A DNA stretch of 64,000 nucleotides from the NCBI GenBank assembly GCA_021796275.1, contig JAJYOI010000003.1, positions 1,532 to 65,531 on the forward strand, in the 5' to 3' direction. This document shows, piece after piece, positions 4,787 through 44,112 of the stretch; within the stretch, counting starts at the first letter, position 1, and every line of letters begins with the position of its first letter. Source of the DNA: Bacteroidota bacterium. GTDB lineage: Bacteria > Bacteroidota > Ignavibacteria > UBA10030 > UBA8401. The notes below the pieces were generated by a model. The model had not been told where the DNA came from. It did no database searches and saw only the letters and a list, made by a program, of their open reading frames with translations. The position numbers and the translations under genes were made by a program.

Positions 4787-4838
4787 CGCGTTGAAAATTA
4801 TCGCAAAGCCGCTAAGGCACAGAAAGGAAGGATACACC

Positions 4839-5753: not shown

Positions 5754-5762
5754 ATATAAATC

Positions 5763-6689: not shown

Positions 6690-6690
6690 G

Positions 6691-7143
6691 TTACTCTAGT
6701 TTAAACCATGATAGATCGCCAATAAATATTTTACCATACGTTCCAACTTCATGGAACATAGTCTGATGGTCTATGTAAGTAAAATTATAATAAGGGAGAA
6801 CGAACATGCCTCCAAACGGAATGACAGTGAAGCCAGTTTTATTAAGGCTTGGGCTTCTAAAAAAAGTGGGACCAATATCAATTCCGCCAACACGATACAT
6901 ATATTCCAAGCCGATATGATACTTTGCATTATCTCTGAAAATATCATAGTCATAGACTATACCATATCTTGAATCAGTAGTTAAACTTACAATGACGATT
7001 GACACTTCATAACCAAGTGTAAAACCGCCTTGGTTGCCAAACGTATACCCAATTTTCAATCCTGGGCAAACAAAAATTAATTCTGATTCACACGATGAAT
7101 GAAAAGAAATCGCGAAAAAACTCAAAAGAAATATTTTCTTCAT
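6691..7143 (-). CDS. Hypothetical small secreted or outer-membrane protein
   Basis: 150 aa, signal peptide, Gly/Tyr-rich beta-rich composition. No recognisable motif. Confidence 0.35.
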   Translation of the reverse strand: MKKIFLLSFFAISFHSSCESELIFVCPGLKIGYTFGNQGGFTLGYEVSIVIVSLTTDSRYGIVYDYDIFRDNAKYHIGLEYMYRVGGIDIGPTFFRSPSLNKTGFTVIPFGGMFVLPYYNFTYIDHQTMFHEVGTYGKIFIGDLSWFKLE

Positions 7144-7167
7144 ACTATTTCACATTCGAGAGGAAAA

Positions 7168-8190: not shown

Positions 8191-8220
8191 AGCCTCATAG
8201 CGATTTCGTGTTCAAACTTT

Positions 8221-11766: not shown

Positions 11767-11794
11767 ACAATGTTCACCTTACGTCATGAATGAA

Positions 11795-29990: not shown

Positions 29991-31684
29991 TTCTTGACAA
30001 ACTGCACAACGGCATCAACCGCCGATTGCACTTTAACTGTCCACCGTTTGCCTGTTGCACGTTCCTTCAACTCCACCTCTTGATTTTTCATATTTCTTTC
30101 TCCCACCACTACCTGCAAAGGCATTCCAAGCAGGTCGGCATCTTTGAATTTGAAGCCCGCAGACACCGAAGTTCTGTCGTCAAACAAAACAGATAATCCT
30201 TTTGACTGTAAAGAGTTATATAATTCTTCTGATGTTTTTACAATGCTTTCTGAATCAGGATTTACACAAATCAGGTGAACATCGTATGGCGCAATGGATT
30301 TCGACCAGATAATACCATTCGCGTCATGATGTTGTTCGATATGACATGCCACAATTCGCTCAACACCGATGCCGTAACTTCCCATAATGATCGGTTGCTC
30401 CTTGCCGGACTCATCCAAAAAATTTGCTCCCAAAGCGACAGAATATTTTGTGCCTAGTTTGAAAATATGACCAATTTCAATTCCCTTTACAATGCGAAGT
30501 GGCGAAGAACAATTGGGGCACGACTCACCGTCTTCAACCGTGCGAAGATCATAATTGCCTTCAACTTTTACATCCCGATTGAAATCAATATTGCCAATAT
30601 GATAATCATTTTTATTCGCGCCGCTGTACATTCCGTTAGCACCTTCGAGACGTTTGTCGGCAATAATTTTGAATTTTGCTTTCAACCCGATTGGACCGAT
30701 TGATCCGGCATCGGCGCCAGTCAATGCAAGGAGTTCTTCCGGTTGTGCGGGACGAACATCGGTGCCGAGCACTGTTTGCAGTTTTATCTCATTAAGTTGA
30801 TCGTTCCCCATCATGAAAATCAACACCGGCGTGTCGCCTGAAATATACACCAGTGATTTCGCACATTTATTTGTTTCTATCTTGAGAAATTTGGCAAGTT
30901 GGTCAATCGTTTTAATATTCGGCGTATGGATTTCTTCCAGAGCCTTTTCGCCGTTCAACCGTACTGCTGAAGGCATCTTCGATGTCGCAACTTCAAGATT
31001 CGCTGCATAATGACAATGATCGCACAGCGCAACCGTGTCTTCACCGGCATCCGATTCAATCATGAATTCCTGTGAGCCGCTTCCTCCCATCGCTCCGCTC
31101 GATGCGCCAACAATGAAGAAGTTCAATCCGCATCGCGAGTAAATTTTCTTGTATGCTTCCGCGTGAAGATTGTAGCTCACGTCTAATCCTTCCGGCGATG
31201 AATCCATGCTGTACGAATCTTTCATCGTAAATTGTCTGCCGCGAAGCACTCCCGATTTCGGGCGGGGTTCGTTGCGAAACTTTGTCTGTATTTGATACCA
31301 AAGCTGCGGTAAATCTTTATATGAACGGATTTGATTCCGCGCGATGTGTGTGATAATTTCTTCATGCGTAGGTGCAAGCACAAGTGCACGATTCTTGATA
31401 TGGAAAAGAATATCGCCGAACGCTTTCACGCGGCCAGTCTCTTCCCATATCTCAATCGGATTCAATGCAGGCAAATGAAATTCCTGCCCGCCGATTGCAT
31501 CCATTTCTTCACGGATAATCTGCATCACTTTTTTCATCACCGCATAACCGAGCGGAAGAAACGAAAAAATTCCCGCGCCCAACTGGCGCATTAGTCCTGC
31601 TCGTATCATCAGTTGGTGGCTTGGAATTACTGCATCGGCCGGAACTTCTTTTACTGTAGGGAAAAAGCCTTTGGATATTCTCAT
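29987..31684 (-). CDS. proS: Proline--tRNA ligase (bacterial type with editing domain)
   Basis: 565 aa. Class II aaRS motifs, INS editing domain, C-terminal anticodon-binding domain. Confidence 0.9.
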   Translation of the reverse strand: MRISKGFFPTVKEVPADAVIPSHQLMIRAGLMRQLGAGIFSFLPLGYAVMKKVMQIIREEMDAIGGQEFHLPALNPIEIWEETGRVKAFGDILFHIKNRALVLAPTHEEIITHIARNQIRSYKDLPQLWYQIQTKFRNEPRPKSGVLRGRQFTMKDSYSMDSSPEGLDVSYNLHAEAYKKIYSRCGLNFFIVGASSGAMGGSGSQEFMIESDAGEDTVALCDHCHYAANLEVATSKMPSAVRLNGEKALEEIHTPNIKTIDQLAKFLKIETNKCAKSLVYISGDTPVLIFMMGNDQLNEIKLQTVLGTDVRPAQPEELLALTGADAGSIGPIGLKAKFKIIADKRLEGANGMYSGANKNDYHIGNIDFNRDVKVEGNYDLRTVEDGESCPNCSSPLRIVKGIEIGHIFKLGTKYSVALGANFLDESGKEQPIIMGSYGIGVERIVACHIEQHHDANGIIWSKSIAPYDVHLICVNPDSESIVKTSEELYNSLQSKGLSVLFDDRTSVSAGFKFKDADLLGMPLQVVVGERNMKNQEVELKERATGKRWTVKVQSAVDAVVQFVKN

Positions 31685-31721
31685 GAGTTGATTCTTAATT
31701 TTTCAATTGAATGTTCGTTTT

Positions 31722-31794
31722 GTGCTCTCGCGCAGACTCGAACTGCGATTAGAGGTTTAGGAAACCCCCGTTCTATCCACTTGAACTACGAGAG
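31722..31794 (-). tRNA. tRNA-Arg (anticodon CCT)
   Basis: Hand-folded. Acceptor GCTCTCG/CGAGAGC, D stem GTTC/GAAC, anticodon stem GGGGT/ACCTC with loop TTCCTAA (CCT), T arm CGCAG-TTCGAGT-CTGCG, discriminator A. No encoded CCA. Confidence 0.8.
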
Positions 31795-31931
31795 CTACAT
31801 GCTGGAGAAAGATAGTCAAATCTCTGTGGACTTTCAATAAATTTGGCGTTCATTTAAGCGTGCGAAGATAGACTTCGGAACGTCTGTCTTCAAAACAAGA
31901 GAAGAAAAATCTTCACAAGGTTTCCATAATC

Positions 31932-32366
31932 TCAGGCAGATTTTTCCACCAACTCCTTCAGCGCATTTAATACCATTTTCCAATTTCCTTCCGAGTGATT
32001 CTTCTCTTCTTCCGTAGTATTATTATCCTGAATCACAGTAAGTGTTGTGCCTTGATCCGCAGGCGAAATCTTGTAAATAACTTTCTTGTAATTCTCCGGA
32101 TCATCTGCCAAACCCGACATGCCACTCCAATATGTTGTTTCAAGCAGCCGTTCTGAAACAATATTGAGTATTGTTCCTTTATCTTCGTACGCCTTCCCTT
32201 TCCACACGCCTCTGTAAATAATCGGGCTGCCAACTTTCCAATCTGAAATGGCTTCGGTGCCGAACAGATATTGCTTGATCATTTTAGGATCAATCAGCGC
32301 CTTCCACACTTTCGCTGCTGAAGCGTTGATCGTGACGGATTGAGTCGCAATAAACCCTGTGTTCAT
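31932..32366 (-). CDS. SRPBCC-superfamily (AHSA1/activator of Hsp90 ATPase-like) protein
   Basis: 144 aa, size and pattern typical of that fold. Confidence 0.5.
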   Translation of the reverse strand: MNTGFIATQSVTINASAAKVWKALIDPKMIKQYLFGTEAISDWKVGSPIIYRGVWKGKAYEDKGTILNIVSERLLETTYWSGMSGLADDPENYKKVIYKISPADQGTTLTVIQDNNTTEEEKNHSEGNWKMVLNALKELVEKSA

Positions 32367-32560
32367 CTAACCCTCCTTAATTAAAAGTGATATAATTCAG
32401 CCGCTCATCTGGATTGCGGCAAAAATGAATGAAGCAACTTATGAAGCATTGAACAAAAAAACAAACAACACTGTGCACATCATAGAATTAAAATCGATCT
32501 GCAAATTCTGAAAATTTCCATGGCTTTAAATCTTTAGAACGACAAGAAAAAAGTAGACGG

Positions 32561-32612
32561 ATTTGGACATTAAAGGAAATTCATCTAAAAGTTTTGGACT
32601 TTAGAGGAATTC
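32561..32612 (+). promoter_or_regulatory. Tandem direct repeats (candidate operator) upstream of the HTH-EIIA regulator gene
   Basis: ATTTGGACATTAAAGGAAATTC (32561..32582) and TTTTGGACTTTAGAGGAATTC (32592..32612), about 31 bp centre to centre. Confidence 0.4.
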
Positions 32613-32644
32613 TATGTAACTTTTTGATCAAAAGAAAGCGCCGT

Positions 32645-33334
32645 ATGGAATTGAAGATTAAGGATATCGTCGACCTTTTACAAGTTTCCGAAAAGACTGT
32701 CTACAGGTGGATCAAAGATAAAAAAATACCCTGTTATCGAATTAATCATCAGTATCGTTTCAATCGCACAGAAATTAATGAATGGATACTGAGCAGCAAA
32801 ATCGAACTGTCTTCTTCTCTTTTAAATTTATCAAGCTCTGGAAGACAAGACGATCTATCACAGCTTATAGAAAAAGGTGGAATTGTCTCTAATATTCCCG
32901 GTGAAAATGTTCGGGAAGCATTGCGAAATGCAATTCAAAGAATTAACACGCCGCAAAACATTCCGAAAGAAGAAATTCTCTCGGCTTTGTTAAGCAGGGA
33001 AGAAATGATGCCGACGGCAATCGGCAAAGGAATAGCAATTCCTCACCCGCGCAATCCCATCATTACCGATTTAAAAAATGCGAGCGTTTCAATTTGTTGC
33101 TTGGAGAAACCGGTTGATTTCGGTTCTTTGGACAATCTTCCGGTTCACACTCTTTTCATTTTACTCACGGCAACTCCGAAAATGCATTTAGAAGTGCTTT
33201 CTAAAATTTCGTACCTCTGCCAAGATGACTCCTTCTTAAATCTGCTGAAGGAACATGCGCAAAAAGAAATTATTTTGGACTATGTTCGCAAGAGAGAATT
33301 AGAGTGGCACAAGAAAGAGACGTTGAATAAATGA
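32645..33334 (+). CDS. Fusion regulator: excisionase/MerR-type HTH DNA-binding domain + PTS EIIA type-2 (PtsN/EIIA-Ntr-like) domain
   Basis: N-terminus LKIKDIVDLLQVSEKTVYRWIKDKKIPCYRINHQYRFNRTEINEWI (HTH_17-like). C-terminal domain with GKGIAIPHPRNP (phospho-His motif of EIIA-Ntr) and PVHTLFILLTATP. Start taken at ATG 32645 (MELKIK). Stop overlaps the start of the next gene. Confidence 0.6.
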   Translation: MELKIKDIVDLLQVSEKTVYRWIKDKKIPCYRINHQYRFNRTEINEWILSSKIELSSSLLNLSSSGRQDDLSQLIEKGGIVSNIPGENVREALRNAIQRINTPQNIPKEEILSALLSREEMMPTAIGKGIAIPHPRNPIITDLKNASVSICCLEKPVDFGSLDNLPVHTLFILLTATPKMHLEVLSKISYLCQDDSFLNLLKEHAQKEIILDYVRKRELEWHKKETLNK

Positions 33335-35313
33335 TAAGCTTCTTTGCGGGTACCGCGTTGTTTTTCGTTGGAGGGTTAGCCGCCATTGTTGTAAAAGGAA
33401 AATTCAAGGCGATGATGTTTTTAATTTTCGCAGTCCTTGCTGAATTTTTTCTTCTCCCTTCGATCGTCCGGATTTTACTGTATGGCGGCCAACTTGAAAC
33501 GCAGCTCGCTTTCTCTGGTCCGATTGGAATTTCATTTATCCGATTAGATCCGTTGGCGGCGCTGTTTGCGCTGATCATTTCTCTCGGCTCATTGCTTGCC
33601 GCAGTGTATTCCATCGGTTACATGAAAATGTATTCGGACGATACGGCAGAACTTTCATCCTATTATTTCTTTTTAGGGATGATGGTTTCTTCAATGCTTC
33701 TTGTCGTCGTCGTACAAAATGCGTTGCTCTTCCTCATTGTCTGGGAATTGATGTCGCTTGCCTCGTTCTTTCTTGTAAGCTTTGAACACAAAAAAGAGGA
33801 CGTGAGAAAAGCCGGACTCTATTACCTCGTTGCCATGCAAATTGGAGCGGCATGTTTGCTTGCTGCGTTTGGTTGGTCGTCTGCAATTACCGGCTCACTC
33901 GATTTTAATTCTTTTAAAAGCGTTGCCGTCAATTCAGGCAGTAATTCAGTCTTTCTCTTTATTCTTTTCTTATTTGGATTCGGCACGAAAGCCGGTTTCG
34001 TTCCTTTACATACGTGGCTGCCGAAAGCACATCCAGCGGCTCCAAGTGGAGTTTCCGCGTTGATGTCCGGCGTTATGATCAAAACCGGCATTTATGGAAT
34101 TCTGAGAATTCTTTTGCTGTTCGGTGTTCCAGACTTACGACTCGCATACGGAATTTTTATCCTTTCAATAGTCACCGGAATTTATGGCGTCGCAAATGCC
34201 ATCGCGCAGCACGATCTGAAAAAATTACTTGCCTATCATAGTATAGAAAATATAGGTATCATCGGCATGGGAATCGGTGTTGGTATGCTTGGCTTGGCAT
34301 ACAACAATACGCTTGTTGCGGCACTGGGTTTTCTCGGAGCTTTGCTGCACACGTTTAATCATTTTACTTTTAAGAGCGTTTTGTTTTATGGCGCCGGAAT
34401 AGTGTACTCGCAAACTCATACAAGAGAAATTGAAAAGCTCGGCGGCCTCAATAAATATTTGCCGTTCACCTCCGTTCTTTTTTTGATTGCTTCACTTGCA
34501 ATCAGCGGCATGCCGCTGCTCAGCGGGTTCATTAGTGAGTTTGCAATTTTTCTTGGCATTGCGAGAAGCTTTTCTATCACTGCCCTCCCGATTAATATTG
34601 CTGCTTTATTAGGAATGTCCGGCTTAGCACTTATCGGAGCGATGGCTCTTTTGTGTTTCACCAAAGTCTATGGAATTTGTTTCCTCGGTTCACCACGATC
34701 AGAATTTCATTTTGTACCTTCAGAAAAAGAATCGTCGCTTCTTATCCCGATGATTATTTTGGATCTCTTCATTATTGCGATCGGTGTTCTTCCAATGCTT
34801 TCAGTTGTCGTGCTCGGCCATATCGTTGCGCAGTTTGTACCGAGTGTTTCAATCACCGCACTGCCGGAAATTATTTCACTGATGACGAAAGTATCCATCA
34901 CAATGGCTCTATTCATTTTCATAATTATTTTCTTCTTTGTCATAAGAACTGTTTTACTAAGGAAAAGAAGAGTGCAAGCCTTCAAAACGTGGAATTGCGG
35001 CTATCAGGGGGAAAGCAGCCGTCTTCAATACACGGCAAGTTCCTTCGCTCAACCATTCTTGCAATTGACTGCAGAATTAGTTCAGCAAAAAGTCCACATC
35101 CACAAAGAGCAAGTGCTCTTCCCTGCGCACGCGTCTTTTGAAAGTCATGCTCAGGATTTTTCAGAGCGATTGCTCATTCAGCCATCCATCCGCTTGCTGA
35201 ATAAATTCCTGAATAAATTCTCATGGATTCAAAGCGGAAGAATGCAACAATACATCATCTACGGATTGATCTTTCTCGTTGCGCTTCTTATCTGGATTTG
35301 GAGCGGCAAATGA
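33331..35313 (+). CDS. HyfB/HycC/NuoL-like antiporter-type membrane subunit of a group-4-hydrogenase-like complex
   Basis: 660 aa, about 16 TM helices. WLPKAHPAAPSGVSALMSGVMIKTG proton-pumping subunit motif and a C-terminal extension as in HyfB. Confidence 0.8.
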   Translation: MISFFAGTALFFVGGLAAIVVKGKFKAMMFLIFAVLAEFFLLPSIVRILLYGGQLETQLAFSGPIGISFIRLDPLAALFALIISLGSLLAAVYSIGYMKMYSDDTAELSSYYFFLGMMVSSMLLVVVVQNALLFLIVWELMSLASFFLVSFEHKKEDVRKAGLYYLVAMQIGAACLLAAFGWSSAITGSLDFNSFKSVAVNSGSNSVFLFILFLFGFGTKAGFVPLHTWLPKAHPAAPSGVSALMSGVMIKTGIYGILRILLLFGVPDLRLAYGIFILSIVTGIYGVANAIAQHDLKKLLAYHSIENIGIIGMGIGVGMLGLAYNNTLVAALGFLGALLHTFNHFTFKSVLFYGAGIVYSQTHTREIEKLGGLNKYLPFTSVLFLIASLAISGMPLLSGFISEFAIFLGIARSFSITALPINIAALLGMSGLALIGAMALLCFTKVYGICFLGSPRSEFHFVPSEKESSLLIPMIILDLFIIAIGVLPMLSVVVLGHIVAQFVPSVSITALPEIISLMTKVSITMALFIFIIIFFFVIRTVLLRKRRVQAFKTWNCGYQGESSRLQYTASSFAQPFLQLTAELVQQKVHIHKEQVLFPAHASFESHAQDFSERLLIQPSIRLLNKFLNKFSWIQSGRMQQYIIYGLIFLVALLIWIWSGK

Positions 35314-36230
35314 TGATCAAGGCATTTGTCTTTGTGGCGGCGGCGCTTTCACCGTTTTTTTTCATCGGCATCGTTAATAAAACCAAGGCTCTTTGGGCAG
35401 GCAGAAAAGGCGCGTCGGTTTTTCAGCCGTACTACGATTTTTCTAAGCTGCTTTACAAAGGAGAAGTAATTAGTAAGACGACTTCTTTTGTTTTCAAAAT
35501 AGCTCCTTCAATAAATATTGCAGCAGTACTCTTTGCAATGTTATTTATTCCAATTCCTTTTATCGGATCAATCATAAGCTTTCCCGGTGACTTTATTGTA
35601 TTCACCTATACGCTTGCATTGGCGAAATTTATGCTCGTCCTTGCCGCTTTAGACACAGGGAGCAGTTTTGAAGGAATGGGAGCGAGCAGAGAAGTGACGT
35701 TTTCAGCGCTGGTCGAGATGGCATTTTTTATTATTCTCGGCACGCTCGCATTATTGAGCAGCCAGATTTCATTCCAAGCACTGTTTACAATGCTGACCGT
35801 TAGCGCGGGTTATTCACTGTTAGTAAAAATTCTTTTAGTCGCTTCCTTCTTTATTATGCTTTTAGCAGAAGGCAGCCGCGTTCCGGTTGACGATCCAAAC
35901 ACGCACCTCGAGCTTACAATGATCCATGAAGTGATGATCCTCGATTACTCCGGTCCCGATTTGGCTTTTATGGTGTATGCCGCAGGGATGAAGATGCTGC
36001 TCATCGCGCTGTTGATTGCAGACTTATGTATTCCGCCAAATTTACCAGTGATGGCAGCACTTTCGCTCTTCATCGGAGTTCTGATTCTTATTTATATATC
36101 CGTCGGAGCGGTTGAATCGTTAATCGCACGCTCACGAATGTCGCATGTTCCGCAATTTATTTTTCTTATGACGGCTCTTTCTTTGACAGCGTTCGCCGTA
36201 GTAACATTCTTTCTGCGCGGAGGAATGTGA
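35310..36230 (+). CDS. HycD/HyfC/NuoH-like membrane subunit
   Basis: Start at MMIKAF (ATGA overlap with the upstream stop). KALWAGRKGASVFQPYYDFSKLLYKGEV matches the NuoH/HycD N-terminal signature. Confidence 0.75.
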   Translation: MMIKAFVFVAAALSPFFFIGIVNKTKALWAGRKGASVFQPYYDFSKLLYKGEVISKTTSFVFKIAPSINIAAVLFAMLFIPIPFIGSIISFPGDFIVFTYTLALAKFMLVLAALDTGSSFEGMGASREVTFSALVEMAFFIILGTLALLSSQISFQALFTMLTVSAGYSLLVKILLVASFFIMLLAEGSRVPVDDPNTHLELTMIHEVMILDYSGPDLAFMVYAAGMKMLLIALLIADLCIPPNLPVMAALSLFIGVLILIYISVGAVESLIARSRMSHVPQFIFLMTALSLTAFAVVTFFLRGGM

Positions 36231-36865
36231 TGGCTGATATTTTGATAATTCTTCTCGGCACAAGTATGCTGTATGTTTTCGCCGTTAGCCGGATTGAAGC
36301 ATATGTGAAAACCCTCGCCGTGCAGGGATTCCTTCTTTTCCTCCTTGTCATCGTCGGCATGAAAGAAATCAGTTGGTTCAACATTGCATTTCTCGGCATG
36401 GAAACATTAGTGATCAAAGCTATCCTTATTCCGTATTTCCTCTTGACCGTCATTCGCAAAAATGAAATTGGACGGGAAGTAGAGCCGTATATTACGCAAT
36501 TCTATTCTATCTTCATTGCAAGCGGAATTATTGTTTTCGGATTTGTTGCTGCATTTTGGGCGGCTAAAACAGGCACAGGCATCAAGCCACTCTACTTCGG
36601 CGTTTCTATTATGTTTATTGTCTCCAGTCTCTTTTTGATCGTTAACCGCAAAACGATCATTACACATATTCTCTGTTATATGATGCTGGAGAATGGAATA
36701 TTTCTGCTCTCGCTTTCTGTTGCAAACGAATTACCGCTGTTGGTCAACCTCGGCGTCTTACTCGATCTGTTTGTAGGCGTATATCTCTTTGTCATCTTCT
36801 TTAATAAAATTCAAGAAATGTACGACGGCAGCCATATTGATGATCTTACAGAATTGAAGGATTGA
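36227..36865 (+). CDS. HyfE-like small membrane subunit
   Basis: 212 aa polytopic, in the position and size of HyfE. ATGA overlap. Confidence 0.5.
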   Translation: MMADILIILLGTSMLYVFAVSRIEAYVKTLAVQGFLLFLLVIVGMKEISWFNIAFLGMETLVIKAILIPYFLLTVIRKNEIGREVEPYITQFYSIFIASGIIVFGFVAAFWAAKTGTGIKPLYFGVSIMFIVSSLFLIVNRKTIITHILCYMMLENGIFLLSLSVANELPLLVNLGVLLDLFVGVYLFVIFFNKIQEMYDGSHIDDLTELKD

Positions 36866-38298
36866 TGATGATTGGTGTTGTGCTTCTTCTGCCGATAGCG
36901 TTAGGATTATTGAGCGTGCTGACTAAAAATAAAATTGTCAATCGCATAGCGCTGATTGGCTCTGCGGTTGTGTATGTTGTTGTTGCGGCAGCGCGGTGGA
37001 TGAATGTGGAGTGGGACTGGCTGCCCGCCTGGCTTTTAACCTACTTTCAATTTGATACCATCGGACTTTACTTTTTTTCCGTCATGGCGATAGTGTACGG
37101 CAGCGTTGCAGCGTACAGCATATTCTATTTTAAAGAGCACAACTTATCGGGAAAACAAGAATCCATTTATGTCATTGAGATTTTATTCTTCATCGTTGCA
37201 ATGACCGGAGTTATTCTCTCAACTCATCTTGCTTTACTGTGGGTGTTTGTTGAAGCGACGACATTAATAAGCGCACTGTTGATTTATTTCGAAAAGAAAA
37301 AATCGTCACTCGAAGCTGCATGGAAGTATGTCTTTATTTGCTCCATCGGAATCGCGCTGGCGTTTGTCGGCATTATTATTCTCTCCATCGGCAGCCGGCA
37401 TATAGATTCGCTGTTCTTCAAAGATTTATATGCGCGCGCTTCAGAAATAAATCCGTTTTGGCTCAAAGCATCGTTTGCATTTATTTTTGTCGGATTGGGA
37501 ACAAAAATCGGCGTTGCCCCGATCCATGCATGGCTGCCCGACGCGCATTCCGAAGCGCCTTCCCCGGTATCAGCTCTGCTTTCCGGAGCGCTGCTGAATT
37601 CTGCTTTTCTTGGATTGCTTCGCGTCCAGGGAATATTTATTCATGCCGGATTAGACGGCTTCTCAAACTTTCTTTTTCTCATCACCGGTTTTCTTTCGTT
37701 GATGGTGAGCGCCGTCTTCATGCTGAGACTGAAGAACTATAAAAGAATGCTCGCCTATTCTTCGATAGAAAATATGGGCTTTCTTTTCATTGGTGTCTCG
37801 CTTGGCAAATATGGTTTTTTTGCCGTTCTTCTGCATACGCTGTCTCATTCTCTTTCGAAAGCATCACTGTTCATGACGTCGGGTAATATTTTGCATCTCT
37901 ATAAAACTAAAAAAATTGATGAAGTAAACGGATTGCTCAAAACAGATCCGCGCACAGGCTGGCTGTGGATCACTGCTACGCTCGCCATTATCGGCTTCCC
38001 TCCGTTTCCTGCTTTCATCAGTAAATTTCTCATTATACAGGCATTTTGGTTAAACGGCATGTATTGGCTTGCCGCTCCGCTGTTCTTGTTTTTGCTGGTG
38101 ATCACTTTCGGCATGGGCGGTGCTGTATTTAAAATGTCTTTTGGTGAAGCGCAAGAATCAACTACAATAAATCAGAAAATAATGATGCACGCCTATGCAC
38201 CGCAATTCGTTTTGCTTTTGATTCTCATTGTTCTTGGAACTAATATGCCCAAACAAGTGCTTAATTTTTTGAACGGCACTGCCGGTTTTTTTCAATAA
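36862..38298 (+). CDS. HyfF/NuoN/NuoM-like antiporter-type membrane subunit
   Basis: 478 aa. WLPDAHSEAPSPVSALLSGALLNSAFLGLLRV motif. Confidence 0.75.
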   Translation: MMMIGVVLLLPIALGLLSVLTKNKIVNRIALIGSAVVYVVVAAARWMNVEWDWLPAWLLTYFQFDTIGLYFFSVMAIVYGSVAAYSIFYFKEHNLSGKQESIYVIEILFFIVAMTGVILSTHLALLWVFVEATTLISALLIYFEKKKSSLEAAWKYVFICSIGIALAFVGIIILSIGSRHIDSLFFKDLYARASEINPFWLKASFAFIFVGLGTKIGVAPIHAWLPDAHSEAPSPVSALLSGALLNSAFLGLLRVQGIFIHAGLDGFSNFLFLITGFLSLMVSAVFMLRLKNYKRMLAYSSIENMGFLFIGVSLGKYGFFAVLLHTLSHSLSKASLFMTSGNILHLYKTKKIDEVNGLLKTDPRTGWLWITATLAIIGFPPFPAFISKFLIIQAFWLNGMYWLAAPLFLFLLVITFGMGGAVFKMSFGEAQESTTINQKIMMHAYAPQFVLLLILIVLGTNMPKQVLNFLNGTAGFFQ

Positions 38299-38307
38299 GC
38301 GGAGTAA

Positions 38308-39798
38308 TTGTTGAACTGGATTGAGATAAAAAATTTACAAGCAATACCGTTAGACGAAATACCGCGTCTCGCTCTCGACGATTTGCGAAATCAGACGGCA
38401 GAGAAAATTAAAAGCGGAAAAAGGCTGGTTCAATTCTTTGGCGATACGGAATCTGATGCAATAACTATTTACGCAATTGTTGCTGACGATAACAATTCAA
38501 AGCTCTGTATCTCTTCTTCGAAAACTAAACCTGAGCAGACTTATTGCTCCATGACGCCCGAAATCCCTTCGGCTTCGTTATTCGAACGCGAACTATACGA
38601 GCTATGCAGAATCACACCCGAAGGGCACCCTTGGCTCAAACCTGTTCGGAAAGGAGTTGCCGGAATTGACCGAAGCGAAATTCCGTATAGATTTTTCAGC
38701 ATGAGCGGCGAGGAAGTTCACGAGGTCGGCGTTGGTCCTATTCATGCTGGAATAATCGAGCCAGGACATTTCAGGTTTTCTTGCCACGGCGAAAAGATCT
38801 TTCATCTTGAAATTGAACTCGGCTTTCAGCATCGCGGAGTTGAAGCACTCTTCATCAAGAACAACAATCGCCCTGCCTATCTCGAAAAACTATCGGAATC
38901 AATCGCCGGTGATACTGTCATCGGACATTGCGGAACATTCGTCCGTGCAATGGAATCCGCGGCGAACATTTTGGTTTCGCGCTCTGCAAAAACGATACGG
39001 ACTATTGCACTTGAACTGGAGCGGATTGCAATTCATTTGGGTGATTTGTCCGCGCTGTCCGGAGATGTTGCGTACCTGACAGGTAATTCCGTTTTCGGTG
39101 CGCTTCGCACAAAAGTGATCAACACAACAATGGCAATGTGCGGAAACCGGTTTGGCAGAGGATTACTCACAATGGGAGGAGTCAACTACGGCATTTCTCC
39201 AAAACTAAAAGAGAAAATTGTATCAACGCTCGATGAACTTGATGATGCTGTGCTTCTCGCAGGAGAAGTTCTGTTTTCGTCGGCATCGACGCTGGAGCGA
39301 TTTGAAAAAACGGGAATTGTCGAAAAAGAAACGACAATTGAAATTGGCATGGTGGGCCCTGCCGCGCGGGCAAGCGGAGTTGCCATTGATGTCCGCGCCG
39401 ACCATCCATTCGGTGGTTATGAATATTTCCCCGTCCATAAGTTGACATTAGACAGCGGCGACGTCTTTGCACGAGCCTATATTCGCTTTGTTGAAATTCA
39501 GCAATCGCTTAAAATTCTTCGTGAGCAATTGAACAATCTTTCCGAAAGTGAGTTGAAGAAAACTTTAGCCGCGCTTCAGCCAAATCGTTTCGTCGTTTCT
39601 CTCACTGAAGGATGGCGCGGCGAGATCGCTCACGTGCTTCGCACAGATCGTGACGGAAAGATCAAATGTCTGAAAATCAAAGACCCGTCGTTTAACAATT
39701 GGTTAGCTGTAGCGCTTGCTGTTCGCGAGGAAGGAATTTCCGACTTCCCTTTGTGCAACAAGAGTTTTAATCTTTCCTATTGCGGCTTTGATTTGTAA
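38308..39798 (+). CDS. NuoCD/HycE-like large subunit lacking the [NiFe]-site cysteines (Ehr-type)
   Basis: 496 aa. GPIHAGIIEPGHFRF…HLEIELGFQHRGVE conserved core. L1 position reads ESIAGDTVIGH instead of RxCGxCxxxH. C-terminal motif reads DPSFNNW instead of DPCxxC. Confidence 0.75.
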   Translation: MLNWIEIKNLQAIPLDEIPRLALDDLRNQTAEKIKSGKRLVQFFGDTESDAITIYAIVADDNNSKLCISSSKTKPEQTYCSMTPEIPSASLFERELYELCRITPEGHPWLKPVRKGVAGIDRSEIPYRFFSMSGEEVHEVGVGPIHAGIIEPGHFRFSCHGEKIFHLEIELGFQHRGVEALFIKNNNRPAYLEKLSESIAGDTVIGHCGTFVRAMESAANILVSRSAKTIRTIALELERIAIHLGDLSALSGDVAYLTGNSVFGALRTKVINTTMAMCGNRFGRGLLTMGGVNYGISPKLKEKIVSTLDELDDAVLLAGEVLFSSASTLERFEKTGIVEKETTIEIGMVGPAARASGVAIDVRADHPFGGYEYFPVHKLTLDSGDVFARAYIRFVEIQQSLKILREQLNNLSESELKKTLAALQPNRFVVSLTEGWRGEIAHVLRTDRDGKIKCLKIKDPSFNNWLAVALAVREEGISDFPLCNKSFNLSYCGFDL

Positions 39799-39815
39799 AA
39801 CTATTTCGGTGAAGA

Positions 39816-40574
39816 ATGCTTGACCTGATAAAACTGAGAAAGCGTCACGGCTTTCAGGCAATTGCCGATGTTCGGAATGCGGCGGTGATGGAAACGCATC
39901 GCGGCTTCCCAATCATTGATGAAACAAAATATACCGATGATTGGCAAAAAGTTGCCGATGTATGCCCGACGAAAGCAATCACGACACATCCGGCTGCAAT
40001 CGATCTTGGAAAATGCATCTTTTGCGGCGAGTGTGAACGCGCATCAAACGGAGCGATCCGTTTCAGCAATGATCATAAAATTGCAGCATCGAAGAAAGAA
40101 CATCTCGTTATTGCTTCGGGAACAACGTATGCGGAATATCGTGCATCGGCAATAGAGGCACGTGAAAAAATACATAGCATGTTCGGCCGCTCTCTGAAGC
40201 TCAGGCAGGTTTCCGCCGGCGGATGCAACGGCTGCGAAATGGAATTGGCGGCATGCGGAAATGTAAATTTTGACATGGGGCGCTTCGGCATTGACTTCGT
40301 CGCTTCGCCGCGCCATGCCGATGGCATTGTCATCACAGGGCCTATCACAAAAAACATGGCGCTGGCTTTATCGGATGCGTACAAAAGCATCAGCGAGCCA
40401 AAAATTGTTATTGCCGTCGGCGCGTGTACGATTAGCGGCGGCGTGTTTGCAGATTCGGGGGAAACCAATCGTGAATTCATTAACACGGTAAAAATTGACT
40501 TGTTTATTCCCGGCTGCCCGCCTCATCCTCTCACTATCATTAATGCAATTTTAGATTTCATCGGAAAAAAGTAA
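39816..40574 (+). CDS. NuoB/HycG/HyfI-like small subunit with N-terminal ferredoxin-like (single 4Fe-4S) extension
   Basis: GGCNGCEME, GACTISGG and GCPP cluster ligands are present. The N-terminal ~90 aa carry CPTKAI…GKCIFCGECE. Confidence 0.75.
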   Translation: MLDLIKLRKRHGFQAIADVRNAAVMETHRGFPIIDETKYTDDWQKVADVCPTKAITTHPAAIDLGKCIFCGECERASNGAIRFSNDHKIAASKKEHLVIASGTTYAEYRASAIEAREKIHSMFGRSLKLRQVSAGGCNGCEMELAACGNVNFDMGRFGIDFVASPRHADGIVITGPITKNMALALSDAYKSISEPKIVIAVGACTISGGVFADSGETNREFINTVKIDLFIPGCPPHPLTIINAILDFIGKK

Positions 40575-40805
40575 GACGCCTGTCATTCCCTCTTCTTTTT
40601 CCTTCCTTCATCCTGTCCAACACGAGAAAGTATTATCTTCCGCTGTGTACTTATTACTCGCTTTAGATGTGTAATCTTCGTCATAAATAAAATAGAATCC
40701 GGAACTTTCAAATTTACAGTGGAGTTAATGCTAGAGATACTATCTCGCAGGCGCGGGGGTACATCGTCGGATAAATTTGCTGGAAGATAATTTTTGTGAG
40801 ATGAA

Positions 40806-42500
40806 ATGATGATTACCGTCTTCGCAGATATTCCGCAGCATACAGAGGCATCTCTTCACGCGGCAACGTACACTGTGCGAGGCAAGCTTCTTCGGACAAC
40901 TTCGGGACTCGAACCATACGCAGGACCGTGGAATGAATTGACCGCCGCGCATTTGCTCAGACGGACAATGTACGGTCCGAAACGAAGTGAAATCCTCTCC
41001 GCTGCATCAAGTTCGCTCGATACCGTACTCACTCAACTCTTCGCTCCGCCGCCAACTCATCCTATTCCTCCTGACCCGAATGTCCCGGGGCGTGACTGGA
41101 CTGTCGGTCCCTATTCCGATATCGTTCAGATCAACTATCAGTATGATTTCGCAATCAAAAAGTGGTGGGTCGGATTGATGCTCACGCAGGGAATTTCTGT
41201 TGTTGAAAAAATGACGCTCCTCCTGCACAACCATTTTGCATCGCAGGCAAGCATTGTAGGCGATGCGCGCTATATGTATAAACAAAATACTTTGTTCCGC
41301 CAATTTGCGCTCGGCAATCTCAAAGAGCTGACCAAAGCGGTGACAATTGACCCCGCAATGCTTGTGTATCTCAACGGATTCCTGAATAAAATTCCATCGC
41401 CGGATGAAAACTACGCCCGTGAACTGCAGGAGTTATTTACCATCGGAAAGGGACCGGAGATTGCCGATGGAAATTATACGAACTACACTGAACAGGATGT
41501 GAAAGCGGCTGCCCGCGTGTTGACCGGCTGGACAGTGCATCATACGACAAACCCGCCGGCTTCAGTATTCGTTCAGAAAAACCACGACAGCGGAAGCAAG
41601 CAATTTTCGTCGGCGTATCAAAATACCGTTATCAAGCCGACACTGAATCCCGACGGGACAATGAACGGCAGCAAAGAAATCAGCGACCTTATTGAAATGA
41701 TTTTCCTCCAGCCTGCAACTGCCCGGTGCTTTTGCAGAAAGCTCTATCGCTGGTTTGTCTATTACGATATTGATGATACGGTCGAACAAAATGTTATTGT
41801 GCCGCTTGCCGATATCATGATGAAGAATAATTTTGAGGTCAAGCCTGTGCTTGACACCCTTTTCCGCAGCGCTCATTTTTTTGATCCGAACAACATCGGC
41901 TGTGTCATTAAAAATCCTGTGGAATTTGCAGTCGGCACAGCGCGCCGGCTCAATCTTCCGCTGCCCGGCTCCGCCGATCCGGAATTTGTGAAGGTAACGG
42001 ACGCGCTGAGGGATACAGCGTGGAGTTTGCAAATGGATCTTCTTGAGCCGCCGAATGTGGCAGGCTGGCCTGCATACCATCAAGCGCCCGATTATCATGA
42101 AATATGGATCAGTACTACTGCGCTTCCGACACGCGGAAAATTCACCGACACCGTTCTGAACGGAATTCATCCGCAGGGAAGCACTACCACCTACAAAATT
42201 GATCCGGTTGCGTACGCCGCAGCCATGAGCAATCCGTCCGACCCGTTCAAGCTTGTTGACGAGATAACGTCGGACCTTTTGCCGCCAATCGAAGGAGGCG
42301 CGGCAATCACGCCGGAACAAAAAAATTATTTACTGTACAATGTTATGGGCTTGGTACAAAACGATGAATATGAATGGACCGCGAACTGGAACAATGCGCA
42401 GAAAAACCCGCCGGATAGTACGGCTTTGACGACTGTGACGAAGACGCTCAAGTCGCTTCTCCGATTCGTGATGCGAATGGCAGAATTTCAATTGACATAG
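40806..42500 (+). CDS. DUF1800-family protein
   Basis: 564 aa. Composition and length typical of DUF1800. Immediately followed by its usual DUF1501 partner. Confidence 0.6.
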   Translation: MMITVFADIPQHTEASLHAATYTVRGKLLRTTSGLEPYAGPWNELTAAHLLRRTMYGPKRSEILSAASSSLDTVLTQLFAPPPTHPIPPDPNVPGRDWTVGPYSDIVQINYQYDFAIKKWWVGLMLTQGISVVEKMTLLLHNHFASQASIVGDARYMYKQNTLFRQFALGNLKELTKAVTIDPAMLVYLNGFLNKIPSPDENYARELQELFTIGKGPEIADGNYTNYTEQDVKAAARVLTGWTVHHTTNPPASVFVQKNHDSGSKQFSSAYQNTVIKPTLNPDGTMNGSKEISDLIEMIFLQPATARCFCRKLYRWFVYYDIDDTVEQNVIVPLADIMMKNNFEVKPVLDTLFRSAHFFDPNNIGCVIKNPVEFAVGTARRLNLPLPGSADPEFVKVTDALRDTAWSLQMDLLEPPNVAGWPAYHQAPDYHEIWISTTALPTRGKFTDTVLNGIHPQGSTTTYKIDPVAYAAAMSNPSDPFKLVDEITSDLLPPIEGGAAITPEQKNYLLYNVMGLVQNDEYEWTANWNNAQKNPPDSTALTTVTKTLKSLLRFVMRMAEFQLT

Positions 42501-42507
42501 AGTAAAA

Positions 42508-44112
42508 ATGAACAGAAGAGAATTTATCCGACGGGCAATTCCTGTAACGGCGCTGCCATTCGTGCTGAACGGATTTCCGCTTCGCGCGTACGGCCGCTCT
42601 CCTTTGCTCGACGCAATAACCAAAGCCGCGGTCACGACTGACCGCGTGCTCGTGCTTGTTCAACTCGGCGGAGGCAACGACGGCATTAATACCGTCATCG
42701 CGCGCGATCAATATCACGCATATATGAATGCGCGTCAAAATATTGCTCTTCCTGAATTATCAATTCTTCCTCTGACATCCGAGACGGGTTTGCATCCCGC
42801 CATGACCGGCATGCGTTCGCTCTACGAGGATGGAAAGCTCGCCATTGTGCAGGGCGTAACATATCCGAACCCCGATCTCTCCCACTTCCGCGCAACAGAT
42901 ATTTGGCTGACGGCAGCGGACTACAACGAAACTCTTTCGGACGGCTGGCTCGGCAGATATTTGCAGCAGGAATTTCCCGGCTATCCTGTCGGTTACCCGA
43001 ACGAGGTAACTCCCGATCCGCTTGCAATTCAAATCGGCGCCGATGTCTCGCTCGCGCTGAAAAGCTCTTCGGGTCCAATGGCGATCTCGCTCTACGATCC
43101 GGATTCATTCTATCAATTGATACAAAACGGAAACAACGGCGGTGTAGCGCAATCTCCGAAAACACCGGCGGGACATGAGCTGTCGTTCATTCAGGAAATA
43201 GCAACACAGTCGCAGGACTATGCCGCTCAAGTGAAAACTGCGGCAGATAAAATCAGCAGTGCAACCCGCTCGGCAATGTATCCCGGTCCCGGAAAAAATT
43301 ATCTTGCCGATCAATTGAAGATTGTTGCTACGCTTATCGCCGGCGGATTGAAAACTCGCTTGTACATCGTGAACCTGTACGGCTTCGACACGCATTCTTC
43401 ACAAGTGGACGGAGGCGATTCGAAAAACGGTGAACATGCGGCGCTGCTGGAAAAACTTTCAACGGCAATTTCTGCATTTCAGGACGATCTGAATACTTTA
43501 GGAATCGGCGATCGCGTACTCGGAATGACATTTTCAGAATTCGGCAGGCGCGTTTATTCCAATTCAAGCCTCGGAACCGATCACGGCACCGCCGCGCCGA
43601 TGTTTCTGTTTGGCAACGGTGTGAAGCCCGGCATCATCGGTGCGAACCCCGATCTTACCGATCTTGTGGATGGAAATTTGAAAATGCAATTCGACTTTCG
43701 CTCTGTCTATACGTCTGTGCTTCAGCAGTGGTTTGCTACAGGAACAGCGGAGTTGAATGCAACACTGCTACAGACGTTCCCTGCCATTCCGGTCGTTCGC
43801 AAATCGTACTACATTGATGAAAACGGCAACCGCTTGTATTCTTCCACGTGCCGTTTATACAACAACTATCCCAATCCTTTCAACCCTTCAACGACTATCG
43901 CGTACGATCTCCCCGATGACGGCACCGTGCTGTTGGAAGTGTTTGACATTACGGGAAGAAAAATAGCAACGCTTGTTAATGGTTTCCAGCCGGCGGGAAG
44001 TTACAAAGTGACATTCACAGCATCGAACAGACTTGCCAGCGGCGTGTATATTTGTCAATTGCGGTGGGGCGAGACACTTGCGATTCGGAATAAAATGCTG
44101 CTGCTGAAATAA
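42508..44112 (+). CDS. DUF1501-family protein with Tat signal peptide and T9SS C-terminal sorting domain
   Basis: MNRREFIRRAIPVTALPF (RRxFI Tat motif). Sulfatase-like DUF1501 core. C-terminal NYPNPFNPSTTIAYDLPDDGTVLLEVFDITGRKIATLV…LLLK type-A T9SS CTD. Confidence 0.7.
   Translation: MNRREFIRRAIPVTALPFVLNGFPLRAYGRSPLLDAITKAAVTTDRVLVLVQLGGGNDGINTVIARDQYHAYMNARQNIALPELSILPLTSETGLHPAMTGMRSLYEDGKLAIVQGVTYPNPDLSHFRATDIWLTAADYNETLSDGWLGRYLQQEFPGYPVGYPNEVTPDPLAIQIGADVSLALKSSSGPMAISLYDPDSFYQLIQNGNNGGVAQSPKTPAGHELSFIQEIATQSQDYAAQVKTAADKISSATRSAMYPGPGKNYLADQLKIVATLIAGGLKTRLYIVNLYGFDTHSSQVDGGDSKNGEHAALLEKLSTAISAFQDDLNTLGIGDRVLGMTFSEFGRRVYSNSSLGTDHGTAAPMFLFGNGVKPGIIGANPDLTDLVDGNLKMQFDFRSVYTSVLQQWFATGTAELNATLLQTFPAIPVVRKSYYIDENGNRLYSSTCRLYNNYPNPFNPSTTIAYDLPDDGTVLLEVFDITGRKIATLVNGFQPAGSYKVTFTASNRLASGVYICQLRWGETLAIRNKMLLLK

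Follow-up and report, generated by a model that had tools for sequence, protein, structure and literature searches.

The gene at positions 38308 to 39798 on the forward strand of the window (the whole 64-kb stretch of DNA that was analysed) almost certainly encodes the large subunit of an Ehr-type complex and not of a hydrogenase, as it matches the published Ehr complexes in operon content, motif loss and taxon range. The complex is a six-subunit Hyf-like membrane machine, descended from or sister to the group-4 [NiFe] hydrogenases. Most likely it is linked to ferredoxin, translocates ions and cannot produce H2. As the Ehr family has already been described, the gene adds a member to a known kind and is not a discovery, and it brings nothing fundamentally new on the missing cysteines.

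Identity and fold of the large subunit

The open reading frame codes for 496 amino acids and is an EhrL-like fusion of NuoC- and NuoD-type parts, similar to the HycE/HyfG large subunits. It matched the Pfam families Complex1_49kDa (PF00346, 4.5e-37) and Complex1_30kDa (PF00329, 1.4e-6). The best relatives among solved chains in the HMMER search were MbhL (1.7e-39) and HycE (1e-38), and the top Foldseek match was also HycE (7z0s_E, TM 0.75). These matches place the protein as a homologue of the large subunits of group-4 [NiFe] hydrogenases; no Ehr entry was present among the PDB matches from HMMER and Foldseek. The fold was confirmed by an AlphaFold monomer (pTM 0.83), in which pLDDT stays below 50 in segments 127-168 and 475-496, which form the pocket, so that no pocket or quinone tunnel is read from the model and no geometry backs the coupling site proposed below. 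Translation probably starts at TTG 38311, with GGAG at 38301-38304. In the MAFFT alignment the C-terminus falls at the position of Arg537 of mature HycE, with no C-terminal extension.

Loss of the [NiFe] ligands

The sequence-only reading had located the open reading frame and both of its motif strings correctly, and had claimed that all four [NiFe]-coordinating cysteines are lost. The L1 remnant ESIAGDTVIGH (E197-H207; 38896 to 38928, forward strand) aligns without gaps to RxCGxCxxxH, and in HMMER it lies opposite RMCGICSFSH of MbhL (6cfw_L) and RVCGICGFAH of HycE (7z0s_E). MAFFT with E. coli HycE, HyfG and NuoCD gave the same picture, in which the first cysteine is replaced by Ala200 (codon 38905-38907) and the second by Thr203 (38914-38916) while His207 is retained, as had been stated.

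The second motif had been misplaced. DPSFNNW (residues 459-465; 39682 to 39702, forward strand), which had been taken as L2, belongs to a separate conserved motif of RxPSFxNL type about 30 residues upstream, with the counterparts AATYANW in HycE, EPTFPNL in MbhL and APSFVNL in Nqo4 by HMMER and MAFFT; its DP is a family-specific substitution where the sister hydrogenases carry SA. The true L2 remnant is NLSYCGFDL at the extreme C-terminus (N488-L496; 39769 to 39795, forward strand). Here SLDPCYSCTDR of HycE/HyfG and NKSF[NE]LCY[SA]C[TC]DR of the nearest real hydrogenases stand opposite NKSFNLS490YC492G493FDL496 with no gaps, DPCYSCTDR of HycE and NLCYSCTDR of the sister hydrogenases pairing with NLSYCGFDL. 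The third cysteine is replaced by Ser490 (39775-39777) and the fourth by Gly493 (39784-39786). The tail CNKSFNLSYC, earlier regarded as a non-canonical remnant, is thus the L2 region itself. Its Cys483 aligns to Ile/Val of hydrogenases, and Cys492 sits at the x position between the two ligand columns, where C/S/A occur in 44/29/24 of 106 representatives.

Neither of the two CxxC motifs is therefore present, whose absence marks Ehr: L1 departs from RxCGxCxxxH, and NLSYCGFDL departs from [DN][PL]CxxCxx[HR] with Cys492 one position off. The alignments to HycE, MbhL and NuoD by HMMER and MAFFT place no cysteine at any of the four ligand columns, which read A200, T203, S490 and G493. Since no NiFe ligand remains, the conclusion of NiFe loss stands in spite of the misplaced L2. 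Neither the 64-kb window nor the conserved neighbourhood yielded hyp or hycI maturation genes, and together with the four lost ligands and the plain C-terminus this supports the prediction that the large subunit cannot bind a NiFe centre.

The substitutions are shared by the family. Among the 117 full-length 50%-identity cluster representatives nearest to the query (MAFFT), 106 lack at least three of the four cysteines and carry a fixed signature, [A/S/C]-G-D-[S/T] at L1 and S-Y-x-G-x-D-L at L2, which argues against chance. In these 106, position 200 is A (45), S (42) or C (14), position 202 is D in 100 and position 203 is S (49) or T (40), while at L2 S490 is kept in 97, G493 in 102 and L496 in 93. 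Misalignment as the cause of the missing cysteines was ruled out, as HMMER against PDB chains, MAFFT with the 117 representatives and MAFFT with the E. coli references concur. Alternative ligands C208, C483 and C492 were rejected as each position varies across the family (A/S/T, C/I/V and C/S/A respectively). In a crude NJ tree the query lies within a large Cys-less radiation with a small clade retaining all four cysteines (CCCC) nested in it, a topology that does not separate single from multiple losses. It was also observed that two aspartates have been gained and conserved in the former metal pocket, D202 (100/106) and D253 (96/106).

The seven-gene cassette

The large subunit is encoded in a cassette of seven forward-strand genes, comprising an HTH-EIIA regulator, HyfB-, HyfC-, HyfE- and HyfF-like membrane subunits, the large subunit, and a small subunit in which a ferredoxin domain is fused to a NuoB-type domain. 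The HyfB-like antiporter-like subunit (33331 to 35313, 660 aa, NuoL/MrpA class) matched NCBIfam hydrogenase 4 subunit B at 5.7e-161 and is 34% identical to E. coli HyfB. Its TM5 Glu139, TM7 Lys220, TM8 Lys251, TM11 His340/His344/Lys348 and TM12 Glu403 are shared by 40/40 orthologues. The HyfF-like subunit (36862 to 38298, 478 aa, NuoN/MrpD class; hydrogenase 4 subunit F, 2.9e-93) conserves Glu131, Lys215, His325/His329/Lys333 and Lys388, so both MrpA/D-like antiporter modules are intact with their Glu/Lys/His chains. The NuoH/HyfC/HycD-like subunit (35223 to 36230; Pfam NADHdh, 5.6e-30), which links the peripheral arm to the membrane, likely starts at about 35298 in comparison with L017. The HyfE-like small membrane subunit (36227 to 36865; NCBIfam hydrogenase 4 membrane subunit, 6.5e-19) has a NuoK-like C-terminal half with a weak Oxidored_q2 match in Pfam, and is the most conserved of the cassette with 70-81% identity within Ignavibacteriota. 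This subunit set, with its NuoB-like small, NuoH-like, HyfE-like and NuoL/M/N-like antiporter subunits, is that of Ehr. Neither NuoA nor NuoJ was found in the cassette, whose membrane set is only the HyfB-, HyfC-, HyfE- and HyfF-like genes, and no MrpB, C, E, F or G genes were present in the cassette or the conserved neighbourhood.

The small subunit (EhrS-like; 39816 to 40574, 252 aa) has an N-terminal ferredoxin domain of NuoI/HycF type with weak Fer4 matches and a NuoB/HycG-type domain (Pfam Oxidored_q6, 5.2e-28). Judged from its cysteines, two [4Fe-4S] sites are intact in it, the predicted medial cluster with C50, C67, C70 and C73 (nt 39963-40034) and the proximal cluster with C137, C140, C204 and C234 (nt 40224-40517). 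These ligand columns are filled in 76/76 orthologues, except C234 in 74/76. The distal cluster keeps none of its four ligands, whose positions are taken by Y39, W43, V46 and S77. It has been lost repeatedly, in the lineage of the window and in roughly one family member in three, its ligands being all present in 41/76 orthologues, all absent in 22/76 including the window, and partial in 13/76.

The first gene (32645 to 33334) fuses an HTH_17 DNA-binding domain (PF12728, 5.7e-15) to a PtsN-like PTS EIIA-2 domain (PF00359, 5.6e-27); its match to TIGR01419 (9.4e-17) is under the cut-off of that family. The mechanical open reading frame begins at 32594, the orthologues begin at the Met at 32645, and the stop codon reaches into the start of the gene that follows. 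The predicted EIIA-2 fold carries a putatively phosphorylatable histidine in its GIAIPH motif, and the phospho-His motif GIAIPHPR (His134) does not vary among 21 orthologues of several phyla. A conserved PtsN-like regulator was observed directly upstream of the cassette in most related loci, with 53 orthologues at 85% query coverage or more. Paralogues of the regulator adjoin ClC channels and amino-acid permeases.

All seven genes have dN/dS of 0.05-0.11 (0.065 for the regulator, 0.11 for the large subunit), indicating strong purifying selection. The frames are unbroken and the gene order is kept in 80 loci of many phyla, at least six, including Ignavibacteriota, Calditrichota, Spirochaetota, Omnitrophota and Lentisphaerota. 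Decay into a pseudogene was ruled out by the dN/dS values and this conservation. Clustering of the flanking open reading frames in the 80 loci revealed no conserved neighbour of any kind beyond the seven genes, and so no conserved redox partner (formate dehydrogenase, NuoEF, PFOR, hyp); no such partner was found in the 64-kb window either. In the promoter scan of 31600-41000 promoter-like sites were not above shuffled expectation; the terminator scan of the same region gave a modest excess (21 sites against 11.2 shuffled), none of which marks the operon ends or follows the small-subunit gene.

Assignment to Ehr and comparison with known systems

An Ech-hydrogenase-related complex of G. sulfurreducens (GSU0739-0745) was reportedly described by Coppi in 2005, and the name energy-converting hydrogenase-related is said to go back to Marreiros et al. 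in 2013. Ehr complexes are defined as group-4-like, near group 4f and devoid of the CxxC motifs (PMC10284858). Their CxxC-less large subunit, NuoB-like small subunit and NuoL-, HyfE- and NuoH-like subunits (PMC7894505, PMC8691401, PMC10284858, PMC6349859) are all found here, as probably is the affinity to group 4f, and the subunit names are shared with EhrA/C/L/S of Geobacter (PMC7894505). Ehr is present in Melainabacteria, Lentisphaerae and Spirochaetes (PMC6349859) and the same taxa were recovered here; this overlap speaks for membership without being proof of it. The literature (PMC6349859, PMC10284858, PMC7894505) is thus matched in both operon content and taxon range. Nothing essential sets the present complex apart, save that the lineage of the window is without the distal cluster and has HTH-EIIA at the operon head, two features with no mention in the accessible Ehr literature. 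The speculative FDH-Ehr of PMC6349859 differs in that no formate dehydrogenase or NuoEF genes are near the cassette of the window. On function and structure the searchable literature contains genomic and proteomic mentions of Ehr only, with no substrate, structure or mutant phenotype. For the Melioribacter roseus orthologue only MROS_0370 surfaced, annotated PtsN (PMC5492636); the genome paper lists only [FeFe] hydrogenases (PMC3534657), and neither it nor the multi-omics paper mentions an Ehr cluster (PMC3534657, PMC5492636).

The best E. coli match of every subunit was Hyf and not Nuo (HyfB, C, E, F, G, and H+I). Hydrogenase 4 (HyfABCDEFGHIJ) and hydrogenase 3, the formate hydrogenlyase (HycBCDEFG; PDB 7z0s), share the fused NuoC-NuoD large subunit, whereas the complex of the window lacks the NiFe ligands, the C-terminal extension, the HycI site, HyfA/HycB, HyfD, HyfJ and FdhF, and has its HyfH and HyfI equivalents fused. 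Closer still are the six-subunit group-4 [NiFe] hydrogenases of Bacilli/Desulfotomaculum (P0254, P0242, P0230), which are probably group 4f-like and of which P0254 is the nearest true hydrogenase. They share the gene order HyfB-HyfC-HyfE-HyfF-large-small, the beta1-beta2 loop motif, the NKSF[NE]L.Y..D tail and the lack of a C-terminal extension, but keep all four cysteines (CGxC, CYxC), have Val/Ala at 202, Gly at 253 and an Arg end, and possess a 196-aa small subunit without ferredoxin domain and a TetR regulator at the head in place of HTH-EIIA. Pyrococcus MBS/Mbx (PDB 6u8y) and MBH (6cfw) are likewise Mrp-linked, ferredoxin-dependent group-4 relatives, and MBS runs without a NiFe site; they have a 13-14-subunit Mrp-type module in contrast to the Hyf-like 6-subunit set here, and MbsL matched at 6.6e-18 only, compared to MbhL above.

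Proposed function and alternative explanations

Ehr membership combined with an ion-pump mechanism is the overall best explanation and is somewhat probable; the redox-driven pump mechanism by itself has a little less than an even chance. The complex would be unable to make or split H2 and may still work as a redox-coupled H+ or Na+ translocator. Ferredoxin is the most probable low-potential donor; it would reduce the medial and then the proximal cluster, whose redox change may be coupled to membrane ion transport by analogy with Mbh, Hyf and complex I. The coupling might proceed via the remodelled polar pocket with the retained Glu151, the gained Asp202 and Asp253, Ser/Thr203 and Ser490. Expression is probably set by the product of the first gene, through phosphorylation of its EIIA domain via the nitrogen-type PTS. 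The invariant FeS ligands in the 76 orthologues, the invariant antiporter chain and the retained NuoH-like coupling subunit favour the pump. Against it stand the lack of a conserved partner oxidoreductase near the 80 loci and the loss of the distal cluster, here as in roughly one of three family members, which a strictly electron-transferring role does not predict. The distal cluster is the usual entry point of ferredoxin.

NuoD, FpoD and NdhH are also without the four NiFe cysteines, as seen for NuoCD in the present alignment, so the emptied pocket could have been turned into a site for quinone, as it was in complex I, NDH-1 and Fpo, making the complex a ferredoxin:menaquinone oxidoreductase and a compact respiratory entry point. 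Complex I NuoD/Nqo4 shares the fold and antiporter-like partners with the query as well. Asp253 lies opposite Asp139 of Nqo4, an important residue at the quinone site of complex I, and is not diagnostic since MbhL also has Asp there. Many hosts respire, and Melioribacter roseus encodes isoprenoid quinones (PMC3534657, PMC5492636). This role is nevertheless unlikely, as the His and Tyr of the NuoD quinone pocket are missing: I150 is opposite Nqo4 His38 (HMMER), Tyr87 is opposite T203 (HMMER), the E. coli Tyr is opposite G201 (MAFFT), and there is no Tyr in 199-204. The beta1-beta2 loop GPIHAGIIEPGHFRF is the motif of the sister true hydrogenases and not the NuoD form, NuoA, J, E, F and G are lacking, the similarity to complex I is weaker (1e-21 to 3e-26 against 1e-38 to 1e-39 for HycE/MbhL), and the NuoH-like subunit is far nearer to HyfC/HycD (HyfC 3e-26) than to NuoH (2e-4). 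Close family members also occur in Gastranaerophilales/Melainabacteria, and Ehr is present in Riflemargulisbacteria, which showed neither a ubiquinone nor a menaquinone pathway (PMC6349859). The earlier comparison with both NuoD and Ehr hence holds for Ehr and only in part for NuoD, the His38/Tyr87 equivalents being absent and every subunit closer to Hyf than to Nuo.

E. coli PtsN controls K+ transport, and the dedicated PtsN-like regulator with its invariant phospho-His, together with the paralogues beside channels and permeases, accords with a redox-gated or redox-independent cation/proton transporter, in which the peripheral arm would cap an Mrp-like antiporter structurally or sense the ferredoxin redox state for it, with PTS-Ntr in control. 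The stepwise loss of cofactors (NiFe everywhere, distal FeS in 22-35 of 76), the lack of a conserved redox partner and a pocket lined by hard oxygen donors (D202, D253, S/T203, S490, E151), which suit a proton or cation and not a soft metal, point the same way. Such a role is doubtful, given that the eight cysteine ligands of the two [4Fe-4S] clusters have stayed unchanged through deep divergence, which would be costly for a purely structural part, and that MrpB, C, E, F and G are missing; such gating is not known to have a precedent. It is improbable that Ehr is specifically a ferredoxin-redox-gated, PTS-Ntr-controlled transporter and not an oxidoreductase with an external acceptor; in this reading the NiFe pocket would have been rebuilt as a proton/cation coupling site (D202, D253, Ser/Thr hydroxyls) with the two FeS clusters as sensor or switch. 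If true, it would account both for the repeated dispensability of the distal cluster and for the lack of a conserved partner enzyme. A decaying, non-functional remnant or an alignment artefact is hardly credible: only the missing catalytic ligands and the labels of automated annotation speak for it, while the purifying selection on all seven genes, the intact frames and synteny, the substitution pattern fixed in the 106 representatives, the agreement of three alignment methods and the detection of Geobacter Ehr proteins by proteomics (PMC7894505) speak against it.

Significance

Ehr complexes are widespread, with relatives of the large subunit in 547 species-level genomes in one scan, and hold an evolutionary place between membrane hydrogenases and complex I. 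Automated annotation names such proteins Ni,Fe-hydrogenase III large subunit or NADH-quinone oxidoreductase subunit C, and this routine mislabelling inflates the H2 metabolism inferred in metagenome studies. The invariant two-cluster core, the dispensable distal cluster, the gained pocket aspartates, the dedicated PtsN-like regulator and the cultured host Melioribacter offer handles for experiments on the family.

Ligand sites of the large subunit

The product of the ORF 38308-39798 (+) is a 496-aa protein with a NuoC-like N-terminal domain followed by a NuoD/hydrogenase-large-subunit domain (Pfam PF00329, PF00346). The ORF begins with two TTG codons in succession (38308-38313). The second, at 38311, is probably the true start, because a GGAG at 38301-38304 precedes it by 6 nt and because this start yields the 495-aa 'MNW...' form found in homologues. 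Residues are numbered here from 38308.

The sequence-only reading had placed ESIAGDTVIGH on the first [NiFe] ligand motif (L1), and the same placement was obtained in HMMER alignments to MbhL (6cfw_L, RMCGICSFSH) and HycE (7z0s_E, RVCGICGFAH). MAFFT alignment with E. coli HycE, HyfG and NuoCD also gave Ala200 and Thr203 for the two cysteines, with His207 kept. The second motif (L2) had been assigned to DPSFNNW (459-465); this stretch matches AATYANW of HycE and APSFVNL of Nqo4, a different conserved motif. The true L2 is formed by the final nine residues, so that the C-terminal tail, which had been described as non-canonical, is L2 itself. The query tail, NKSFNLSYCGFDL, was aligned without gaps to the hydrogenase tails (GSLDPCYSCTDR in HycE and HyfG), with Ser490 and Gly493 at the cysteine positions; the tail of the nearest real hydrogenases in a scan of 1.84 billion proteins is NKSF[NE]LCY[SA]C[TC]DR. 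The query's last residue coincides with the end of mature HycE. Cys483 lies opposite Ile/Val of hydrogenases, and Cys492 falls on an x position of L2 that is C, S or A over the family. All four ligands are thus absent from L1 and L2, and the alignments do not yield the outcome that would have overturned the earlier observation, namely cysteines at these positions. The earlier observation is correct in substance and wrong in the location of L2, and its interpretation as an Ehr-type (Ech-hydrogenase-related) pattern without a NiFe centre is judged right.

Three or all four of these cysteines are missing from 106 of the 117 full-length cluster representatives (50% identity) that lie nearest the query, and only 6 representatives retain the full set. 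The Cys-less proteins carry a fixed signature, [A/S/C]200-G-D202-[S/T]203 and S490-Y-x-G493-x-D-L496. Two aspartates were gained, D202 (100 of 106; Val/Ala in sister hydrogenases) and D253 (96 of 106; Gly in sister hydrogenases).

Organisation and distribution of the cassette

The cassette is headed by an HTH_17 protein fused to a PTS EIIA-2 (PtsN-like) domain (32645-33334, +), followed by HyfB-like (33331-35313), HyfC/NuoH-like (to 36230), HyfE-like (36227-36865) and HyfF-like (36862-38298) subunits, the large subunit, and a 252-aa small subunit (39816-40574) in which a NuoI/HycF-type ferredoxin domain is fused to a NuoB/HycG domain. In E. coli, each subunit finds its best match among the Hyf proteins and not among Nuo. 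Relatives from 547 species-level genomes were recovered in a genome scan. Within the best 80 loci, all seven genes recur in unchanged order in Ignavibacteriota (Melioribacter roseus and a Melioribacter isolate among them), Calditrichota, Spirochaetota/Leptospirales, Omnitrophota, Lentisphaerota, FCPU426 and a Clostridia MAG; in Melainabacteria the regulator is missing and the six structural genes are present.

Tandem Ehr-like cassettes were seen at two loci (L060:5-3836 and 4205-12452; L072:149-3897 and 4293-12320), where the large subunit of the upstream copy shares no more than 43-45% identity with the query and the regulator lies in the downstream copy. Rearranged or interrupted cassettes were found in Spirochaetota, Desulfobacterium and Brevinematales MAGs: the small-subunit gene stands upstream of the regulator in L043, L044 and L057, L076 has the order large-small-HyfB-HyfC-HyfE-HyfF, and L040 and L052 carry an insertion of ~2 kb inside the cassette.

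Clustering of all flanking ORFs gave no further conserved neighbours, and formate dehydrogenase, NuoEF, hyp and hycI were found neither there nor within the 64-kb window. Directly 3' of the cassette lies a DUF1800/DUF1501 gene pair (40806-44112, +), of which the second product carries a T9SS C-terminal sorting domain. As only the closest relative, L017, shares this adjacency, the pair probably has no relation to the cassette. Elsewhere in the window, neighbouring genes at 7168-14464 (-) comprise one that is PorV-like, an ORF of 1181 aa (8221-11766) for which Pfam gave no match, and one for a TonB-dependent receptor (11795-14464).

Iron-sulfur clusters and antiporter modules

The small subunit was aligned with 75 orthologues. 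Across these 76 sequences the proximal-cluster ligands C137, C140, C204 and C234 are invariant (C234 in 74 of 76), as are C50, C67, C70 and C73 of the ferredoxin domain. Its ligand pattern, which joins the 'CP' of motif 1 to the CxxCxxC of motif 2, would make this retained cluster the equivalent, in terms of the T. thermophilus Nqo9 structure, of N6b of complex I, which adjoins N2. At the distal (N6a-type) cluster the window's protein has Y39, W43, V46 and S77 (residues 39-77) in place of the four ligands. All four are lost in 22 of the 76, including M. roseus, some in 13 and none in 41 (loci compared include L018, L048 and L064); their scatter over the taxa implies that the loss occurred repeatedly and independently.

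Both antiporter-like subunits keep the charged residues of the complex-I/Mrp translocation chain. The TM5 Glu, the TM7 Lys and the His and Lys of TM11 do not vary, nor does the TM8 Lys of the HyfB-like subunit; at this TM8 position the HyfF-like subunit has Asn, as E. coli HyfF does. The second TM11 His of the HyfF-like subunit (32 of 40) and the TM12 Glu/Lys are mostly conserved.

Comparison with known systems

Identity as a hydrogenase was rejected, as ligands and C-terminal extension are lacking and a maturation signature was found neither in the window nor in the conserved neighbourhood. A NuoD-type quinone site was likewise rejected: Ile150 stands at Nqo4 His38, and the Tyr87 position is taken by Thr203 in the HMMER alignment and by Gly201 in that of MAFFT. 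Unlike NuoD/Nqo4, the query has the beta1-beta2 loop GPIHAGIIEPGHFRF, the motif of sister true hydrogenases; Asp253 does match Nqo4 Asp139, but MbhL also has Asp there. MbsL of the MBS sulfane reductase matches far more weakly than MbhL or HycE. An AlphaFold model from a 44-sequence alignment (pTM 0.83, mean pLDDT 77), unreliable at the pocket-forming residues 127-168 and 475-496, matched HycE best (7z0s_E, TM 0.75) and then E. coli NuoCD; no Ehr-type structure was among its PDB matches.

The closest true hydrogenase, P0254 of a Bacilli MAG, has all four cysteines and an identical core six-gene order (L164:4381-12450; also L165, L166). Its locus differs from the window in the TetR gene that stands in front, and an ArsR-type HTH follows the six genes. 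The small subunit there also differs, with only 196 aa and no ferredoxin domain, so by its sequence a single FeS cluster would serve a real hydrogenase.

The complex is of the Ehr type known from the literature. The name 'Ech-hydrogenase-related' was given in Geobacter sulfurreducens (GSU0739-0745, EhrA/C/L/S), where all subunits were detected by proteomics and 'the physiological role ... has never been investigated' (PMC7894505, PMC8691401). 'Energy-converting hydrogenase-related' complexes, near group 4f hydrogenases and without CxxC motifs, are described as of unknown function (PMC10284858). They are reported from Melainabacteria, Lentisphaerae, Spirochaetes, Riflemargulisbacteria and CPR (PMC6349859, PMC7304191). 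For M. roseus, the hydrogenases named in the genome paper are all of the [FeFe] kind, and the Ehr-like cluster goes unmentioned (PMC3534657). Our literature search found no functional or structural study of Ehr.

Proposed function

The best-supported reading is a ferredoxin-linked, ion-translocating Hyf-like complex with a polar pocket in place of the NiFe site. E151, D202, S/T203, D253 and S490 would form this pocket, and redox changes at the two remaining clusters would drive or be driven by the passage of H+/Na+ through the pair of antiporter modules. A dead enzyme is scarcely credible: dN/dS is 0.05-0.11 for all seven operon genes against the 92%-identical orthologue in L017, and the loss of the cysteines characterises the family and does not reflect decay. 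Rather improbable, too, is a ferredoxin:menaquinone oxidoreductase with a non-canonical site, and some Ehr-bearing groups have no quinone biosynthesis (PMC6349859, PMC7304191).

A redox-gated or redox-independent transporter under PTS-Ntr control is somewhat less improbable than the menaquinone enzyme, though still unlikely. The regulator gene heads the cassette in most phyla (e.g. L005:454-1140, L048:4352-5029, L064:1602-2366) and in many cases runs into the start codon of the HyfB-like gene; the Ehr literature searched does not mention the association. Homologues of at least ~40% identity, and some of 31-39%, adjoin Ehr cassettes or lie on contigs too short to show the neighbour. Distant paralogues (26-38% identity), not beside Ehr, stand directly upstream of ClC channels/antiporters (with CBS; L115:4993-6756, L118:6700-8430), amino-acid permeases (APC; L098:5581-7065, L099:6795-8255) and transketolase (L110, L119), which suggests a wider family of PTS-linked regulators of transport genes. 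These paralogues, the Ehr-adjacent homologues and the invariant GIAIPH phospho-His of the EIIA domain support a theme of regulated transport.

The Cys-less proteins P0002, P0052, P0095 and P0153 are publicly annotated as 'Ni,Fe-hydrogenase III large subunit', 'hydrogenase large subunit' or 'NADH-quinone oxidoreductase subunit C', and such labels all mislead metabolic inference. The complex of the window adds one more member to a family that had been described before; the finding itself is of moderate to low importance, and the side observations are useful leads toward the function of Ehr.
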